Below, piece by piece: positions 1-4,546 of a stretch of DNA of 5,616 bases. The translations under genes were made by a program, and so were the position numbers. This DNA is from a virus. Lineage: Duplodnaviria > Heunggongvirae > Uroviricota > Caudoviricetes. Numbering within the stretch: position 1 is the stretch's first letter; every line of letters starts with the position of its first letter. The notes beneath the pieces were generated by a model that was not told where the DNA came from, made no database searches, and worked only from the letters and a program-made list of their open reading frames with translations. Location: the IMG/VR virus record IMGVR_UViG_2778261085_000003, positions 1 through 5,616 of that record; one strand, given 5' to 3'.

Positions 1-324
1 GGGATGCTTTAAATCACAGGAATTAATGTTGCACTCAGTAAAATGGTTTTTAAGGGGTTCTATTCGAATCCCTTTCTGTTTCATTAACAAGCCAAATCCC
101 TTATCAATGATATCCATTAATTCCATGAAGTATTTTTCATGTAAATCCTGGTTATCAGAGAGTTGCTTCTCTTCGTACAGCCCGATAAAGGCACGACGCA
201 CGTTACCGGATATAGTATCGATGGTTTCTTTTTCTACGGTACTCAGGTCAAGAGTCGCCAGTTGAGAACGAACTATATTCGCTGCCATTTCCTGGAATGG
301 TTTTGGTAAATCTTTAAATTCCAT
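1..324 (-). CDS. Hypothetical protein, partial (N-terminal 108 codons visible; continues beyond left edge)
   Basis: ATG at 324-322 (minus) preceded by GAGG about 6 nt upstream (plus 331-334 region); frame is open on the minus strand all the way to position 1 (no stop, checked triplet by triplet). Translation begins MEFKDLPKPFQEMAANIVRSQLATLDLSTVEKETIDTISGNVRRAFIGLYEEKQLSDNQDLHEKYFMELMDIIDKGF. Not in the supplied ORF track because it has no stop inside the window. Region is AT-rich (41 G+C in the first 120 nt by hand count). Function not recognised. Confidence 0.5.
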   Translation of the reverse strand, partial: MEFKDLPKPFQEMAANIVRSQLATLDLSTVEKETIDTISGNVRRAFIGLYEEKQLSDNQDLHEKYFMELMDIIDKGFGLLMKQKGIRIEPLKNHFTECNINSCDLKHP

Positions 325-346
325 TATTAGCCTCGTTGGTTAGCTA

Positions 347-565
347 TTAACGTGGGTATGTAATCATTCTGGCAATGCTTAATGCCGCTGCTTTTTCCAG
401 CCTGGTGATATCCTGCTCCAGAGCGGACAGATTTTCAGCCTGCTTAGCCCTGGCTTCATTGGCCCATTTCAAATCCTGCGCTGCATTAATTTTCTGGCGC
501 ATCCACTCATAAAGTTCATCATCGGTATAGTCTGGCGCGATGATGACGGGTTCTCGTTTCTGCAT
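347..565 (-). CDS. ydfC: YdfC-like small prophage protein (72 aa)
   Basis: ORF in track; ATG at 565-563 preceded by GAGGAA about 7 nt upstream; length and position (third small gene downstream of the dicA-like gene, same strand) match the ydfA-ydfB-ydfC arrangement of the Qin prophage as I recall it. Identity is from recalled gene order and length, not from a verified alignment. Confidence 0.7.
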   Translation of the reverse strand: MQKREPVIIAPDYTDDELYEWMRQKINAAQDLKWANEARAKQAENLSALEQDITRLEKAAALSIARMITYPR

Positions 566-594
566 ACTGATTCCTCGCGGTGCTGTTTCGCTTA

Positions 595-723
595 TCAGCC
601 GTTAGATTTTGCCGAACTGGAAAGCGCCTGTTTAAATTCGCTGAAGCTGAGAGCTTCAGCGCCTTCGGCAAGGCTTTCGAAGTATTCTTCGTAAGACTTT
701 TCCATGATTGTGTCGAAATCCAT
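595..723 (-). CDS. ydfB: YdfB-like small prophage protein (42 aa)
   Basis: Not in the ORF track (too short). Minus-strand ATG at 723-721 preceded by AGGTGA; hand translation gives MDFDTIMEKSYEEYFESLAEGAEALSFSEFKQALSSSAKSNG then TGA at 597-595. Acidic, protein-like composition; 42 aa matches the recalled length of YdfB; sits between the ydfA-like and ydfC-like genes. Confidence 0.6.
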   Translation of the reverse strand: MDFDTIMEKSYEEYFESLAEGAEALSFSEFKQALSSSAKSNG

Positions 724-724
724 A

Positions 725-880
725 TCACTCACCTGAGTTTCTTTCCAGCCAGCGACGCGCGCCAGTTTCGGTTTTAAACGTTTTGCTTTTGGTATACGTC
801 ATCGCGGTGAACGTTCCGTCATGGTTGGGAAACACGCCGTATACCAGATATTCGTTGTTACCAAGATCGATAGTATCCAT
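725..880 (-). CDS. ydfA: YdfA-like small prophage protein (51 aa, DUF1391-like)
   Basis: Track ORF 725..934 starts at a GTG; the internal ATG at 880-878 has a better ribosome-binding site (GAGG about 5 nt upstream within AAGGGGAAATGAGGTCAGC) and gives MDTIDLGNNEYLVYGVFPNHDGTFTAMTYTKSKTFKTETGARRWLERNSGE, 51 aa, the recalled length of YdfA. Stop TGA at 727-725 lies 1 nt from the ydfB-like ATG. Confidence 0.65.
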   Translation of the reverse strand: MDTIDLGNNEYLVYGVFPNHDGTFTAMTYTKSKTFKTETGARRWLERNSGE

Positions 881-957
881 GCTGACCTCATTTCCCCTTA
901 ACGCCGGGGCAGCGGAACTGTTTGCTGAGAACACCGTGCGGTGTCTTGATGTAAAGT

Positions 958-986
958 AGATTAGTCATAGCTAACGGCTTGGTCAA
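958..986 (-). promoter_or_regulatory. Candidate sigma70 promoter for the ydfA/ydfB/ydfC-like operon (dicB-operon promoter equivalent)
   Basis: On the minus strand: TTGACC (plus 981-986), 17-nt spacer, TAATCT (plus 958-963). An operator-like palindrome overlaps the spacer and -10; a second lies just upstream of -35. Predicted by eye only. Confidence 0.4.
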
Positions 987-1009
987 GTGTTTTTGTTTGT
1001 CATGGCTAA
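961..1009. promoter_or_regulatory. Pair of operator-like 14-bp palindromic sites (putative DicA-like repressor binding sites)
   Basis: TTAGTCATAGCTAA at 961-974 and TTTGTCATGGCTAA at 996-1009 share the half-site pattern TT(A/T)G(C/T)-N4-(G/A)CTAA with the two sites in the dicA/dicC intergenic region. Confidence 0.45.
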
Positions 1010-1026
1010 CATTTTTGACAGAAAAA

Positions 1027-1054
1027 AAGATAACACATTGATTGTGTTATCTTT
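1027..1054 (-). terminator. Inverted repeat overlapping the dicA-like stop codon; candidate intrinsic terminator for the repressor transcript
   Basis: AAAGATAACACA (1027-1037) / TTGAT loop / TGTGTTATCTTT (1043-1054) is a perfect 12-bp inverted repeat; on the minus strand it is followed by a run of seven T (plus 1021-1027 is a run of A). Stem is AT-rich, so terminator strength is uncertain; it could instead be a protein-binding palindrome. Confidence 0.35.
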
Positions 1055-1454
1055 TGTTTGTTCGTTGACGGGCTTTTAATAATTCTTCAAAGAGTTTGTT
1101 GAAATTTTTTACTCGGGCGCGCATCTCGGTGAGCTGAGCGTCCTGTTCTGATTCAGGCAATGCATTAAAAAGTTCAAGGAGCTCGTGTTCTTTGGGGGAT
1201 AAAGCAACTGGATCCTCAATAGGTGGTGATGGCTGCTTGTCTTCATCGCCAAATAGAATCCATGTTGGCGAGCACTGCAGTACATTGCTAAGTGCAAAAA
1301 GATTCTTCCCTGTTGGTTCGCTATCATCCCGTTCCCATTGTGAAACCGACACATGAGAAATTTTCAGGGCTTTAGCAAGAGACCTTTGGGTGTATTTGAG
1401 GTTTTTTCGGCGATATCTAATGCGTTCGCCAATGGTTAAATTTTTTGTATCCAT
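1047..1454 (-). CDS. dicA: DicA-like repressor (CI-type, XRE-family helix-turn-helix), 135 aa
   Basis: ORF in track; N-terminal helix-turn-helix segment (QRSLAKALKISHVSVSQWERDDSEPTGKNLFALSNVL); length and sequence closely match my recollection of E. coli Qin prophage DicA; divergent from a Cro-like gene across a short operator-bearing intergenic region. Confidence 0.9.
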   Translation of the reverse strand: MDTKNLTIGERIRYRRKNLKYTQRSLAKALKISHVSVSQWERDDSEPTGKNLFALSNVLQCSPTWILFGDEDKQPSPPIEDPVALSPKEHELLELFNALPESEQDAQLTEMRARVKNFNKLFEELLKARQRTNKR

Positions 1455-1536
1455 AGTTAGCCAATGCTAAATCTTATTGACTATGTTTTTGTTAACATCT
1501 ATTTTGTTAGTCATGACTAACAATTGGGTGCTTTAA
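1455..1536. promoter_or_regulatory. Divergent promoter/operator region between the repressor and Cro-like genes
   Basis: Two 14-bp palindromes: TTAGCCAATGCTAA (1457-1470, imperfect) and TTAGTCATGACTAA (1507-1520, perfect). Plus-strand candidate promoter for the Cro-like gene: TTGACT (1477-1482), 17-nt spacer, TATTTT (1500-1505), so the predicted start site falls inside the second palindrome. Minus-strand candidate -10 TAAGAT (plus 1471-1476) with a weak -35 would give the repressor a very short leader. Confidence 0.55.
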
Positions 1537-1767
1537 ATGCTTAAAACAGACGCGCTTTTGTATTTCGGTTCAAAAACAAAACTTGCACAAGCTGCTGGTA
1601 TTCGTTTGGCTTCGCTTTATAGCTGGAAAGGGGATCTAGTTCCTGAAGGTCGCGCGATGCGCCTGCAAGAGGCATCCGGCGGGGAACTTCAGTACGACCC
1701 CAAAGTTTATGACGAATATCGTAAGGCAAAGCGTGCGGGGCGGTTGAACAATGAAAATCACCCCTGA
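1537..1767 (+). CDS. dicC: DicC-like Cro-type regulator, 76 aa
   Basis: ORF in track; first gene divergent from the repressor; helix-turn-helix-like segment (GSKTKLAQAAGIRLASLYSWKG); length and sequence match my recollection of Qin DicC. Confidence 0.85.
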   Translation: MLKTDALLYFGSKTKLAQAAGIRLASLYSWKGDLVPEGRAMRLQEASGGELQYDPKVYDEYRKAKRAGRLNNENHP

Positions 1768-2284
1768 ACAGGTTTGTGAGGCTCTGGATGCCTGGGTATG
1801 CCGACCAGGAATGACACAGGAGCAGGCGACGATATTAATCACGGAAGCATTCTGGGCTCTGAAAGAACGCCCGAACATCGATGTTCAACGCGTCACGTTT
1901 GATGATGGCGCGGTTGATCAACGGGCACTGGGCGTTAACCGGGTGAAGATATTCGAACGCTGGAAAGCTATCGACACCAGGGATAAGCGGGAAAAATTCA
2001 CGGCGCTGATTCCGGCAATTATGGAGGCTATCCGGATCAGTGATTTCAGGTTGTATTGTGAAATTACTGACGGAAAAAGCATTACGTACATGATCTCCGG
2101 GTTAAACAAAGAATATGGCGATGTGGTGGAGTCCGGGCTGCTTTTTGCGGATCCAGCTGTTGTGGAACGTGAGACTGACGAGCTTATAGAAAAAGCTATT
2201 GCTTTCAAGCATGCGTATCGTCAGCAATACCAACATTACTTTGCAGATAAACAAATATCTTCCTGGGGTTCGTATGAGTATTGA
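1751..2284 (+). CDS. YdaT-family protein, 177 aa
   Basis: ORF in track; starts 17 nt before the DicC-like stop; the N-terminal MKI... and the segment REKFTALIPAIMEAIRISDFRLYCEITD resemble Rac prophage YdaT (REK..LIPAI..R..C motif) as I recall it; the position after the Cro-like gene is typical of this family. Confidence 0.7.
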   Translation: MKITPEQVCEALDAWVCRPGMTQEQATILITEAFWALKERPNIDVQRVTFDDGAVDQRALGVNRVKIFERWKAIDTRDKREKFTALIPAIMEAIRISDFRLYCEITDGKSITYMISGLNKEYGDVVESGLLFADPAVVERETDELIEKAIAFKHAYRQQYQHYFADKQISSWGSYEY

Positions 2285-3314
2285 TGCACTGCAATGGGCT
2301 AAAAAGGTGAAAACCGGCAGTTCATCAAGTAAGTCAGTATTGACCTGGCTTGCTGATATGTGCGGTGCCGATTTGTGTGCATACCCGTCAGTATCTGCAC
2401 TGGCTGAAGTAACTGAACTGAACAAAAAGACTGTTCAGGACAGCTTACGACACCTGATGGAGATTGGGTTAATTGTTGATACCGGTGAGAGAAAAGGCCG
2501 AACAAAGCAAATCGTGGTGTACCGACTTATCGGTGTAGAAGAAAGTGTTGCCGAGCCTGAATACACCCAAAAACGGGAGTCTTTAAAGGTGGGTAAAATT
2601 GGTGCTGTTAATAAAAACAGTACCGAAAACGGTTATGTTTCAGCACAAAACAGACCCAAAAACGGAACTCTTTTCTGCATGGAAAATAACCAAAGACACC
2701 CAAATTTTCCATCAAAGACACCCAAAAACGGATCACGGAACCCAAAGGAACCAAAAGATCTAAACCCCACACATAACGCACGTGAGAGTGCTCCGACCAG
2801 TGAGCTGGAGGTTTTGTCGTTACAGGCAACGCCCCCTGAATTCCTGGATGGCTTGAGCGAACCTATCGGAAAATTTCCGATGACCAATGGTTGGCATCCG
2901 TCGCCTGATTTTCGACGGCGGGCTGCACTGTGGGGAGTTGCTCTGCTGGAGCCGGAATTTACACCTGCTGAACTTGTCGCATTCCGGGATTACTGGAGTG
3001 ATGAGGGAAAAGTGTTCACGCAGGTTCAGTGGGAGCAGAAATTCGCCCGCCACGTAAATCACGTCAGGGCGCAGGTTAAACCAGTCAGCAAGGGAGTAAA
3101 CCATGCAGCAGCACCAGGTGGCACCGAATCACGGGCAGTTCAGGAAATTCGGGCAGCACGTGAGAAGTGGGAACGTGAAAACAGATTTATCAGCGACGGA
3201 AACGGCCTGGAAGCTGTGGGAACTCATGGGGGAGATTTATTCGAATCGCTGGACCCAGAAGAACGGTGCCGCGCCTACGAAGCTCTGGATTGCACAGATT
3301 GGCGCGATGACTGA
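2274..3314 (+). CDS. Phage replication initiation protein: N-terminal helix-turn-helix DNA-binding domain plus DnaT C-terminal-like domain
   Basis: Track ORF begins at 2199; I prefer the in-frame ATG at 2274, which overlaps the upstream stop (ATGAGTATTGA, stop at 2282-2284). N-terminus (SVLTWLADMCGADLCAYPSVSALAEVTELNKKTVQDSLRHLMEIGLI) looks like a winged helix-turn-helix of phage initiators. The C-terminal segment GKFPMTNGWHPSPDFRRRAALWGVALLEPEFTPAELVAFRDYWSDEGKVFTQVQWEQKFARHV resembles the C-terminal region of E. coli DnaT (..RLAALWGVAL..YW..EGKVF..VQW..) from memory. The 3' end is uncertain because of overlap with the next gene. Confidence 0.8.
   Translation: MSIDALQWAKKVKTGSSSSKSVLTWLADMCGADLCAYPSVSALAEVTELNKKTVQDSLRHLMEIGLIVDTGERKGRTKQIVVYRLIGVEESVAEPEYTQKRESLKVGKIGAVNKNSTENGYVSAQNRPKNGTLFCMENNQRHPNFPSKTPKNGSRNPKEPKDLNPTHNARESAPTSELEVLSLQATPPEFLDGLSEPIGKFPMTNGWHPSPDFRRRAALWGVALLEPEFTPAELVAFRDYWSDEGKVFTQVQWEQKFARHVNHVRAQVKPVSKGVNHAAAPGGTESRAVQEIRAAREKWERENRFISDGNGLEAVGTHGGDLFESLDPEERCRAYEALDCTDWRDD
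2563..2757. repeat. Iteron-like direct repeats inside the initiator gene (candidate replication origin)
   Basis: Exact ACCCAAAAACGG at 2565-2576, 2654-2665 and 2720-2731; variant ACCGAAAACGG at 2622-2632; CAAAGACACCCAAA at 2691-2704 and 2712-2725; GGAACC(C)AAAG doublet at 2737-2757; all in the same orientation, next to an A+T-rich stretch (about 2585-2620). Confidence 0.5.
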
Positions 3315-3768
3315 GCAGCAAATCCGGCAGGTCTGCCGCCAGTGCATGGACCGCTGCCGGGCGGGTGAAACATGGCCTCCTGACCTTGCTGAGTTTGTGG
3401 CGCTGATTTCAGAAAGCGGAGCCAATCCATTCGGTCTGACAGTGGATGCCGTGATGGAGGAGTACCGTCGCTGGCGCAATGAGTCTTGGCGATACGACGG
3501 AAGCGATAAATATCCGTGGTCTCAGCCTGTGCTGTATCACATTTGCCTCGAGATGCGTTCAAAGGGGATTGAGAGCCAGATGACCGAAGGGGAGTTAAAA
3601 CGACTTGCAGAACGGCAGCTGACGAAATGGGCAAAGCATGTTGGTAATGGACTGAGCGTTCCGCCAGTCCGGCGACAACTGGCGGCCCCCAAACGCCCGT
3701 CGGGACCAACGCCAATTGAGTTGCTGAAACAGGAGTATGAACGCCGGAAAGCAGCTGGGTTTGTTTGA
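3103..3768 (+). CDS. Lambda P-like replication protein (helicase loader), 221 aa if started at 3103
   Basis: ORF in track; the ATG at 3103 has a strong ribosome-binding site (AAGGGAG about 6 nt upstream). Recalled lambda P aligns over the body (PDLAEFVAL vs PGQFVAW; YPWSQPVLYHICLEM vs YPWKSNAHYWLVTNL; MTEGELKRLAERQL vs LTDAELRRKAADEL) and weakly from about residue 60 (KLWIAQIGAMTEQQ vs RQWVLAFRENGITTMEQ). Alternative starts are ATG 3226 and ATG 3307 (ATGACTGA overlap with the upstream stop). Confidence 0.7.
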   Translation: MQQHQVAPNHGQFRKFGQHVRSGNVKTDLSATETAWKLWELMGEIYSNRWTQKNGAAPTKLWIAQIGAMTEQQIRQVCRQCMDRCRAGETWPPDLAEFVALISESGANPFGLTVDAVMEEYRRWRNESWRYDGSDKYPWSQPVLYHICLEMRSKGIESQMTEGELKRLAERQLTKWAKHVGNGLSVPPVRRQLAAPKRPSGPTPIELLKQEYERRKAAGFV

Positions 3769-3801
3769 GTTGATAAGTAAGTTTACCGGGAGGAAATTTT
3801 A

Positions 3802-4530
3802 ATGGAGACCGTTTTTGACGCACTGAAAGCAATGGGAAAAGCCTCTTCCCAGGGAGTGGCTGCACGTCTTGGAATGACCAGGGATGAGGCGATTAACGAG
3901 CTGTGGAAACTGAAGCGTCGCGGGGAAGCTGATAACAATGGTCCGATGTGGTGGCTGATTCAGTCCGGAGAAAGCGAATCACATTCACAGGTACCGAAAG
4001 TGACAGCGCAAATGCTGATTGGTGCGATAGAGCAACATGGTCCTAAAACGGCGGATGAGCTGGCATTGATGTTCAGAATCACTTCCCGTCGGGCGAATTC
4101 ATCACTGGTAATGGCAATCAGCAAAGGACGCCTGATTCGCGTAAATCAGAACGGTAAATTTCGTTATTGTATACCTGATGAAAAAATTAACGATATGAGT
4201 GCGGAAAGCACCATGCTGGTGCAAGTAGGTTCGGACACCGACAAAAACGAAAAGCAGAGTGATCGCAATCGTTTTTTGCCAGCCAAAGAGCATGGTCAGA
4301 GAGAAGATACTGTGGCAGACATTGTGCAGCCGCTGCCATCGTTCACCGAAAAGCGAATGAATTACCAGGTTTTACCATCGCTGCATATGGCAAACCGCGA
4401 ACTGCGCCGGGCGAAAAGTCATGTCCAGAAGTGGGAGCGTGTCTGCGCCGTGCTGCGGGAGCTGAACAGGCACCGGGATATTGTCCGACAGATTGTCGAT
4501 TCCTCCAGTCGTATTGTGTCGGAAAAGTGA
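3802..4530 (+). CDS. Hypothetical prophage protein, 242 aa, with two winged-helix-like segments and a basic helical C-terminus
   Basis: ORF in track; strong ribosome-binding site (GGGAGG about 9 nt upstream); protein-like composition. Possibly a DUF1627-type prophage protein, but that assignment is from memory and not verified. Confidence 0.8.
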   Translation: METVFDALKAMGKASSQGVAARLGMTRDEAINELWKLKRRGEADNNGPMWWLIQSGESESHSQVPKVTAQMLIGAIEQHGPKTADELALMFRITSRRANSSLVMAISKGRLIRVNQNGKFRYCIPDEKINDMSAESTMLVQVGSDTDKNEKQSDRNRFLPAKEHGQREDTVADIVQPLPSFTEKRMNYQVLPSLHMANRELRRAKSHVQKWERVCAVLRELNRHRDIVRQIVDSSSRIVSEK

Positions 4531-4546
4531 TTCCTAGGGAGGGCTT

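Follow-up and report, generated by a model that had tools for sequence, protein, structure and literature searches.

A DnaT C-terminal-type domain in the replication initiator of a lambdoid prophage and its pairing with a lambda-P-type helicase loader

Introduction

In the lambda O/P system, the initiator O has an N-terminal iteron-binding domain, a flexible linker and a C-terminal half that is specific for the P-type DnaB loader encoded directly downstream, and the iterons, with A-tract cores, lie inside the initiator gene, which follows cro/cII-like genes. Here we analyze a module of this plan in a stretch of 5,616 nucleotides (nt) of phage DNA (Caudoviricetes; record IMGVR_UViG_2778261085_000003, positions 1 to 5,616; hereafter the window), in which an initiator gene at positions 2274-3314 joins a predicted winged helix to a domain like the C-terminal domain (CTD) of the host primosomal protein DnaT, and is followed by a gene for a lambda-P-like loader.

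The host protein that shares this domain, DnaT (179-181 amino acids, aa), acts at replication forks via PriA and PriB and has as its partner the AAA+ protein DnaC, the loader gene lying directly downstream, as it does for the initiator of the window. The DnaT CTD binds single-stranded DNA (ssDNA) between adjacent protomers, at about 2 nt per protomer, and alanine mutants of K133, K143, R146, Y127, W128 and F135 lose ssDNA binding (PMC4132743). In the mature preprimosome, CTD filaments on the lagging-strand ssDNA mark where the helicase is to be loaded, a distinct N-terminal domain serves for oligomerisation and has been proposed to recruit DnaB/DnaC, and the acidic linker, with D66 and D70, lies in the PriB groove (PMC13377028).

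The same two-gene architecture has been described by Brezellec et al. (2017) for DopC/DopE of Cellvibrionales and Oceanospirillales, where a gene for a protein with HTH_36 and the DnaT C-terminal motif is followed by one for a P-like protein with PF06992 (PMC5509034). These genes are chromosomal and host-resident, outside prophages, in bacteria that have neither dciA nor dnaC, and iterons were not reported for DopC, whereas the initiator gene of the window contains iterons and belongs to a prophage immunity/replication operon. The authors took the DnaT_C domain as a substitution that occurred in DopC (PMC5509034); unlike in that view, phage initiators already have this domain.

Public databases also hold close relatives of the initiator. 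Proteins 93-98% identical to it are named "DnaT-like ssDNA-binding domain-containing protein" in RefSeq and are followed by "replication protein P", the GenBank names being "primosomal protein I" or "phage replication protein". The RefSeq/PGAP family of that name, from prophages of E. coli, Klebsiella and Enterobacter, shares family, length and neighbours with our protein at 49-98% identity, PGAP annotates the DnaT-like and P pair as such in E. coli prophages, and phrog_1032 and phrog_3992 collect the same protein family with nothing substantive that differs. The combination of a DnaT-like and a P-like gene is common and, given the RefSeq names and the 2017 description of DopC/DopE (PMC5509034), was already known, so that the initiator of the window is one more member of an annotated family and alone changes little. 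The refinements worth recording are the iterons, the joint of a mobile cassette, the obligatory pairing with P and a conserved dual-coding overlap.

Results and Discussion

The DnaT-type bundle of the initiator and its retained residues

The initiator gene runs from ATG 2274 to TGA 3312-3314 and encodes 346 aa, at the position given in the original prediction, which was made by inspection of the sequence. A TTG at 2199 was rejected as the start because all homologues begin at the MSIDA methionine; in an alignment of 39 initiator homologues (A1), which was also used to build an AlphaFold2 model, the N-termini uniformly read MSIDA(L/M)(Q/R)WAKK. Four parts can be distinguished in the protein: a winged helix-turn-helix (HTH), a disordered linker encoded by the iteron region, a DnaT-CTD-like bundle and a tail.

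A DnaT C-terminal-like region had been predicted at about nt 2880-3070, corresponding to aa 200-270 or so, and the profile search of the 346-aa product placed PF17948 ("DnaT DNA-binding domain") at aa 201-267 (nt 2874-3074; profile positions 1-63 of 69), with an E-value of 9.5e-18 and 64.1 bits against a gathering cut-off of 25. A phmmer search of Protein Data Bank (PDB) chains returned the DnaT CTD entries 6aep, 4ou6, 4ou7, 2ru8, 9zbt and 9zbu with E-values from 2.8e-19 to 7.7e-16, the last two being preprimosome entries of 2026. In the AlphaFold2 model the bundle (aa 196-268) has a predicted local distance difference test score (pLDDT) of about 90 and shows the three-helix-bundle fold of the 4OU6 type with its N-terminal loop. 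Its superposition on 4ou6 and 6aeq by Foldseek gave template modelling (TM) scores, normalized to the target, of 0.85-0.93 and a root-mean-square deviation of 0.8-0.9 Å over 68-72 columns, at 56-57% identity. The assignment to the DnaT CTD is thus far beyond chance, and the proposed fusion, in which a DnaT C-terminal-type domain follows a phage-type origin binder of the winged-HTH type, is confirmed.

The similarity concerns only this part of DnaT. In the equivalog NF002770 of NCBIfam, only DnaT positions 81-159 align, to aa 193-272 of the initiator, with 91.5 bits against the 201 required for a full-length DnaT, so the protein was rejected as a full member of the DnaT family. Neither NF002770 nor phmmer against the PDB showed any resemblance to the part of DnaT before position 81, and the N-terminal oligomerisation domain of DnaT (Phd/YefM-like, residues 1 to about 60) is absent according to Pfam and AlphaFold2, a winged helix taking its place. 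The 30 aa that precede the bundle have a net charge of -4 (the median is -3 in 57 initiator-type cluster representatives described below) and are not alignable to the DnaT linker. A class signature also separates the initiators, with QWEQKFARH, from DnaT, with QWQQKLARS.

Within the bundle, every DNA-contact residue validated by mutation in DnaT is retained: K133, K143, R146, Y127, W128 and F135 correspond to K246, K256, R259, Y240, W241 and F248 of the initiator, six identities out of six, and F124 is likewise identical in F237. These ssDNA-contact residues are invariant or at least 90% conserved over A1. On one face of the DnaT filament interface, 7 of 8 residues are identical (K200, L219, W220, G221, V251, Q252 and Q255).

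Among the proteins with this domain, five (P0225, P0229, P0240, P0241 and P0245) have DnaT-like repeats in tandem, two or three per polypeptide, an arrangement that would put part of the "filament" into a single chain.

The N-terminal winged helix and the in-gene iterons

The N-terminal 88 aa were modelled with helices at 3-11, 17-30, 40-47 and 51-64 and strands at 67-69 and 83-85 (pLDDT 73-86), and fold comparison gave weak matches to winged-helix and plasmid-initiator folds. Of the two profile matches foreseen by the original prediction, a C-terminal DnaT domain and an N-terminal HTH, only the former was obtained above threshold, as HTH_36 (PF13730) scored 20.7 bits, under its cut-off of 25. 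The phage-type HTH nevertheless stands, on the basis of the modelled winged helix, of a precomputed PF13730 match in homologues at 53-85% identity, and of the PHROGs, where the protein falls in replication-initiator families such as phrog_1032 (9.7e-86) and the O-like phrog_391 (1.8e-12). The O-like matches span aa 1-175. Unlike lambda O, the initiator does not reach the threshold of PF04492 (12.4 bits against 28.7), and PF09524, the C-terminal domain cited for O in PMC5509034, gave no match at E-values up to 1; the C-terminal half is in its place a DnaT-type bundle followed by a tail.

Residues 90-195 are disordered in the model, and the DNA that encodes this linker contains A-tract iterons (CCCAAAAACGG) in 3 exact and 2-3 degenerate copies. 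The exact 12-mers, ACCCAAAAACGG, lie at 2565, 2654 and 2720; CCGAAAACGG, a near copy, is found at 2623, and the degenerate ones at 2699 and 2741. The segment has a G+C content of 0.35-0.45 versus 0.5-0.6 in the flanks and is strongly A-rich on the plus strand, with an AT skew of up to 0.76. At the same gene position, a Klebsiella homologue with 53% protein identity (L004) contains five 25-nt copies of AACnnnCCCAAAAACGGGA. A module with a putative N-terminal iteron-binding domain, a flexible linker, A-tract-core iterons within the initiator gene and a P-type loader gene directly downstream, preceded by cro/cII-like genes, repeats the plan of lambda O/P, with a C-terminal half that is presumably also specific for its loader.

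By contrast with the HTH_36-type genes, the repeat finder found no iterons inside ydaU of phage Rac-SA53 (L002:2498-3568), a relative of the DUF1376 type, for which reason we consider in-gene iterons a trait of the HTH_36-type N-terminus and not of the DnaT-like cassette. The origin of that DUF1376-type initiator, which carries the same C-terminal cassette, lies elsewhere or is of another kind.

A C-terminal cassette on unrelated N-termini

In A1, identity to proteins with unrelated N-termini begins at a conserved joint, KDLNPTHNA, and similarity at the DNA level to Rac-SA53 and to an Actinobacillus phage begins at query base 480-485, equivalent to nt 2753-2758 of the window. From the joint to the C-terminal end, the initiator is 80-85% identical to E. 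coli database proteins whose N-termini are unrelated. The N-termini found on this C-terminal module are HTH_36, DUF1376 (YdaU type), DUF1376 with a T5orf172/MUG113 insertion, and "replisome organizer", so that the module is a cassette present on at least four unrelated N-termini, and the unit of DnaT-like domain, tail and loader moves as a whole behind several unrelated origin-binding N-termini.

The tail that follows the bundle consists of a conserved helix, SRAVQEIRAAREKWERE (aa 286-302; 287-302 in the AlphaFold2 model), and a disordered acidic end (...LDCTDWRDD), the tail outside the helix having a pLDDT below 50. V289 is invariant in A1, and A285, R287, A288, Q290, I292, A295 and R301 are nearly so. 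Two PHROGs, phrog_3992 and phrog_1408, match the tail.

The loader gene and its overlap with the initiator gene

The P-like product matches PF06992 with 58.8-60.9 bits against a cut-off of 26. Public annotations of such genes, in the GenBank and RefSeq records examined, start at the equivalent of 3307 or later and give products of only 140-153 aa. Several lines point to an upstream start at ATG 3103, and we favour on these sequence grounds a loader of 221 aa over the annotated forms. With the long form the PF06992 match rises to 60.9 bits and covers profile positions 27-161 instead of 50-161, and that to phrog_109 rises to 213 bits over positions 22-235, compared with 186 bits over 74-235 for the short form. 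The long form is 65% identical over 220 aa to a Klebsiella product of 223 aa, including the N-terminal extension, which is conserved (ETAWKLWELMGEIYSNRWTQKNG...LWIAQIG). Furthermore, a strong candidate Shine-Dalgarno sequence precedes ATG 3103 within the initiator coding sequence, and GGAGG, GGGAG or AGGAG was found 6-9 nt before the aligned P-like ATG in 18 of the 18 loci compared.

From this start, the loader gene would overlap the initiator gene out of frame by 212 nt, a difference from lambda O/P. The overlap was compared in the window and 17 other loci (L004, L007-L021 and L058), representing at least 10 genera (taxa covered: Kluyvera, E. albertii, Scandinavium, Enterobacter, Salmonella, Citrobacter, Klebsiella, Pluralibacter, Phytobacter and Pseudomonas), and it amounted to 212-215 nt in all 18, except for 227 nt in Pseudomonas. 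Over nt 3193-3312, mean pairwise identity was 0.66-0.84 in the P frame versus 0.41-0.59 in the initiator frame, and the reverse was found at nt 3111-3170, where the initiator frame, encoding the helix at 286-302, is the better conserved. In a codon-permutation test, the probability that chance would leave frame +1 open along the initiator tail was 0.01-0.54 per locus, which is not significant alone. As openness of the frame proves nothing, the long form rests on the conserved ATG and Shine-Dalgarno sequence, on conservation of the P frame and on the extended profile matches.

Two other starts were considered less likely than ATG 3103. The ATG at 3307 chosen by PGAP has no Shine-Dalgarno sequence, and conserved P-frame sequence reaches further upstream; such sequence also continues upstream of the ATG at 3226. 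In lambda P, domains I and II comprise residues 1 to about 119 (PMC12661323). In the annotated forms of 140-153 aa, domain I would be missing together with half of domain II, and the corrected start is relevant to anyone expressing such loaders.

Pairing of initiator-type genes with P-like loaders

The original prediction held the combination of a DnaT-like initiator with a P-like loader to be remarkable. The adjacency to a lambda-P-type loader gene was borne out, but not its oddness. In a scan of one genome per species, 80 loci were collected, and they split cleanly into those with dnaT (179-181 aa) followed by an IstB-type open reading frame (ORF) of 245-247 aa (dnaC), and those with an initiator-type gene (250-376 aa) and a P-like gene. 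A P-like ORF was next in 19 of 19 initiator-type loci, recognized in 17 from its size and position, which are conserved (with a Pfam check in 5 of these), and in the exceptions, L018 and L022, with Pfam. Such a record makes the pairing the rule.

One locus of the scan differs in layout. In Superficieibacter electus (L022:3001-4517), a 250-aa initiator has HTH_36 and the DnaT domain but lacks the long tail. The gene after it encodes a canonical lambda P of full length (260 aa; 192 bits to PF06992), and the two genes overlap by only 19 nt. The module may have had this non-overlapping layout ancestrally.

The distribution of the domain was also studied through an exhaustive search with the bundle alone, which gave 127 clusters at 50% identity. 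PF17948 matched in 126 of the 127 members scanned (the window protein and 126 representatives), and the partner domains among the representatives were HTH_36, DUF1376, DnaD_N, RP-C and Phage_rep_O. Classified by size and domain position, 57 representatives were initiator-type versus 15 of DnaT size. Relatives of the initiator occur in Enterobacteriaceae that have dnaT-dnaC, as in Klebsiella pneumoniae ATCC 13883, where L016 and L047 lie on one scaffold, and one was also found in Pseudomonas lundensis (L058), a member of a genus that is not known to have dnaT.

A proposed role at the origin and its alternatives

The part of DnaT retained in the initiator is its ssDNA-filament element, and for this reason we read the bundle as the ssDNA-holding and loader-coupling module of the origin. 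The explanation that we prefer, with a probability of roughly 0.55, is a module like lambda O/P in which the C-terminal half of the initiator is a device of the DnaT-CTD type that holds ssDNA and couples it to the loader. Dimers of the initiator would bind the iterons within their own gene and form an array similar to the O-some, and the neighbouring A-rich stretch of low G+C content would melt. The arrayed DnaT-like domains, at a high local concentration, could then capture the single strand cooperatively, at about 2 nt per domain, in such a way that the bubble would be kept open against re-annealing and SSB and the loading site would be marked. Finally, the C-terminal module would pass this site to the P-like protein carrying the host DnaB. 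The bundle would thereby play at a phage origin the role that the DnaT CTD filament has at a restarted fork, with no need for PriA or PriB. The initiator class would then represent the ssDNA-filament domain of DnaT set on a sequence-specific origin binder, in line with the DnaT/DnaA analogy proposed from the 2026 preprimosome structures.

Several points weigh against this proposal. Binding of ssDNA by the phage bundle is predicted from the conservation of residues, and four lesser DNA or interface positions are changed (S147 to H260, I150 to H263, G151 to V264 and H136 to T249), as is the alpha-2 face of the filament (A122 to V, A126 to D and A130 to D); the geometry of a DnaT-like filament may accordingly differ in the initiator. 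The tail-less initiator of S. electus is still paired with a canonical P, which bears on the part of the protein that would contact the loader. The iteron set, with 3 exact copies, is thinner than that of Klebsiella, with 5, and the prophage may be cryptic. A literature search found no experimental study of phage DnaT-like initiators, the papers on PF17948 and the DnaT domain being those on DnaT structure.

A bundle without any ssDNA role, which would only dock the P-like loader in the manner of the C-terminal domain of lambda O, is the alternative that survives best, though we hold it to be clearly less probable. The strict co-occurrence with P-like loaders and the inheritance of both as one cassette fit such an adaptor, as does the pairing in S. 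electus, which implies that the bundle itself may be the contact, and host DnaT also precedes, and is genetically linked to, the loader DnaC (PMC13377028). The residues that stay invariant in diverged homologues are, however, exactly those that contact ssDNA in DnaT, which would not be expected for a protein-protein surface alone, and the ssDNA and docking roles are not mutually exclusive.

The original prediction had suggested that the initiator mimics DnaT and recruits the host restart machinery, that is, that the bundle and the acidic segment before it dock PriA/PriB and an iteron-bound initiator nucleates a preprimosome of the restart type. The identity of 56-57% to the CTD of both E. coli and Salmonella DnaT is compatible with it, the hydrophobic surface with which DnaT docks on PriA HD2/CTD could persist, and the acidic 30 aa recall the DnaT linker that lies in the PriB groove (PMC13377028). 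Against it, D66 and D70 have no alignable counterpart and the N-terminal domain of DnaT is missing, the class signature differs from that of DnaT, and a DnaB loader is encoded in every locus, which makes the PriA route unnecessary. Moreover, docking of DnaT on PriA needs a rearrangement of PriA induced by the fork (PMC13377028), which an origin bubble need not supply. Recruitment of PriA/PriB by mimicry is not favoured, and appears unlikely, because those parts of DnaT that recruit partners are either absent or cannot be aligned, a loader comes with the module itself, and a relative exists in Pseudomonas.

The least probable explanation, a gene decaying in a cryptic prophage whose domain combination has no present role, would agree with the resemblance of the context to defective Qin/Rac prophages, with some decay in the window (an in-frame stop in the ead/Ea22-like ORF and a transposase-like edge) and with the lower number of exact iterons, but the initiator and loader frames are both intact, cross-genus identity is 49-57% for the initiator and 65% for the loader with in-frame indels only, and the same module is found in complete phage genomes of the Stx and PPompW types.

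Possible descent of DnaT from the phage module

The direction of the supposed mimicry may even be the reverse, host DnaT deriving from a phage module. We offer tentatively, as a possibility to which we give less credit than to the role at the origin, that enterobacterial dnaT-dnaC is a domesticated phage cassette of initiator C-terminal module and helicase loader, in which the bundle was originally an origin device and was later re-used behind PriA/PriB. The order dnaT-dnaC mirrors that of phage initiator and loader, and this mirror synteny, together with the greater diversity of the initiator class, keeps the idea open. A neighbour-joining tree of the 73-aa domain is too weak to be rooted and is consistent with DnaT as one branch of a wider family.

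If the domestication were real, the bundle would be a cooperative ssDNA filament laid by iteron-bound initiators as a landing pad for loader-bound DnaB. Recombination would swap the origin-binding N-termini freely at the NPTHNA joint, and, as a corollary, the 212-nt overlap would weld the initiator tail to domain I and half of domain II of the loader, so that cognate partners could not be parted by recombination. The value of the locus is that of a pointer to the questions of whether a DnaT-type filament can prepare a loading site without PriA/PriB, which loader-side contacts the DnaT CTD makes and whether dnaT-dnaC has a phage origin.

Prophage context and other features of the window

The whole window shares 93-95% identity with many E. 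coli prophages and 93.7% with PPompW/Stx2a phages. It corresponds to the early region of a lambdoid prophage of the Qin/Rac type, of which the initiator gene and the P-like gene form the replication module. The coordinates of its features are collected in Table 1.

Table 1. Features of the 5,616-nt window and the basis of each assignment.
Feature	Coordinates	Strand	Basis or position
Upstream immunity region, Qin/Rac type, feeding the replication operon	1047-2284	.	Pfam, PHROGs, PGAP names
DicA-like repressor	1047-1454	-	Pfam HTH_3; PGAP dicA in a 95%-identical E. coli locus
DicC/Cro-like	1537-1767	+	Pfam P22_Cro; PGAP dicC in the same 95%-identical locus
YdaT/CII-like	1751-2284	+	Pfam YdaT_toxin; phrog_163 CII-like; PGAP "toxin YdaT family protein"
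Initiator gene, 346 aa	2274-3314	+	ATG 2274, TGA 3312-3314; Pfam, NCBIfam, PHROGs
N-terminal winged helix-turn-helix, aa 1-88, presumed iteron-binding domain	2274-2537	+	AlphaFold2, PHROGs
Iteron cluster in the linker-coding region, putative origin	2560-2752	.	Repeat families D1/D3/D6, exact 12-mers
Conserved joint KDLNPTHNA, aa 161-169, start of the shared C-terminal cassette	2754-2780	+	Alignment A1, DNA similarity
DnaT C-terminal-type three-helix bundle, aa 197-268, putative ssDNA-binding/filament module by residue conservation	2862-3077	+	PF17948, PDB matches, fold
Initiator tail, aa 269-346	3078-3311	+	AlphaFold2 helix, conservation, PHROGs
Candidate Shine-Dalgarno AAGGGAG for the P-like start, within the initiator gene	3090-3096	+	6 nt upstream of ATG 3103
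Predicted dual-coding overlap, 212 nt	3103-3314	+	Initiator residues 277-346 in frame 0; loader residues 1-70 in frame +1
Favoured long form (221 aa) of the lambda-P-type DnaB helicase loader	3103-3768	+	PF06992, phrog_109, Klebsiella product
DUF1627 gene	3802-4530		Downstream of the P-like gene
DUF977/Ren-like gene	4547-4969		After the DUF1627 gene

Upstream of the dicA-like repressor gene, three small ORFs on the minus strand (347-565, 595-732 and 725-934; region 347-934) sit where the 95%-identical E. coli locus has ydfC, ydfB and ydfA (DUF1391).

Downstream, a frame of the ead/Ea22-like type on the plus strand (4976-5385) is broken by one in-frame stop codon (TGA, 5098-5100; ...VCQKRN*EADGVIAECH...) and is probably a pseudogene that arose by a nonsense mutation. 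At the 3' end, an ORF on the minus strand (5523-5616) leaves the window and terminates in ...NRRLLERLGHTPPAEAEKAYYASIGNDDLAA*, an end that looks like what we take to be the C-terminus of an IS3-type transposase. A transposase end at this position would account for the multi-copy and plasmid matches, in the thousands, obtained when the whole window was searched.

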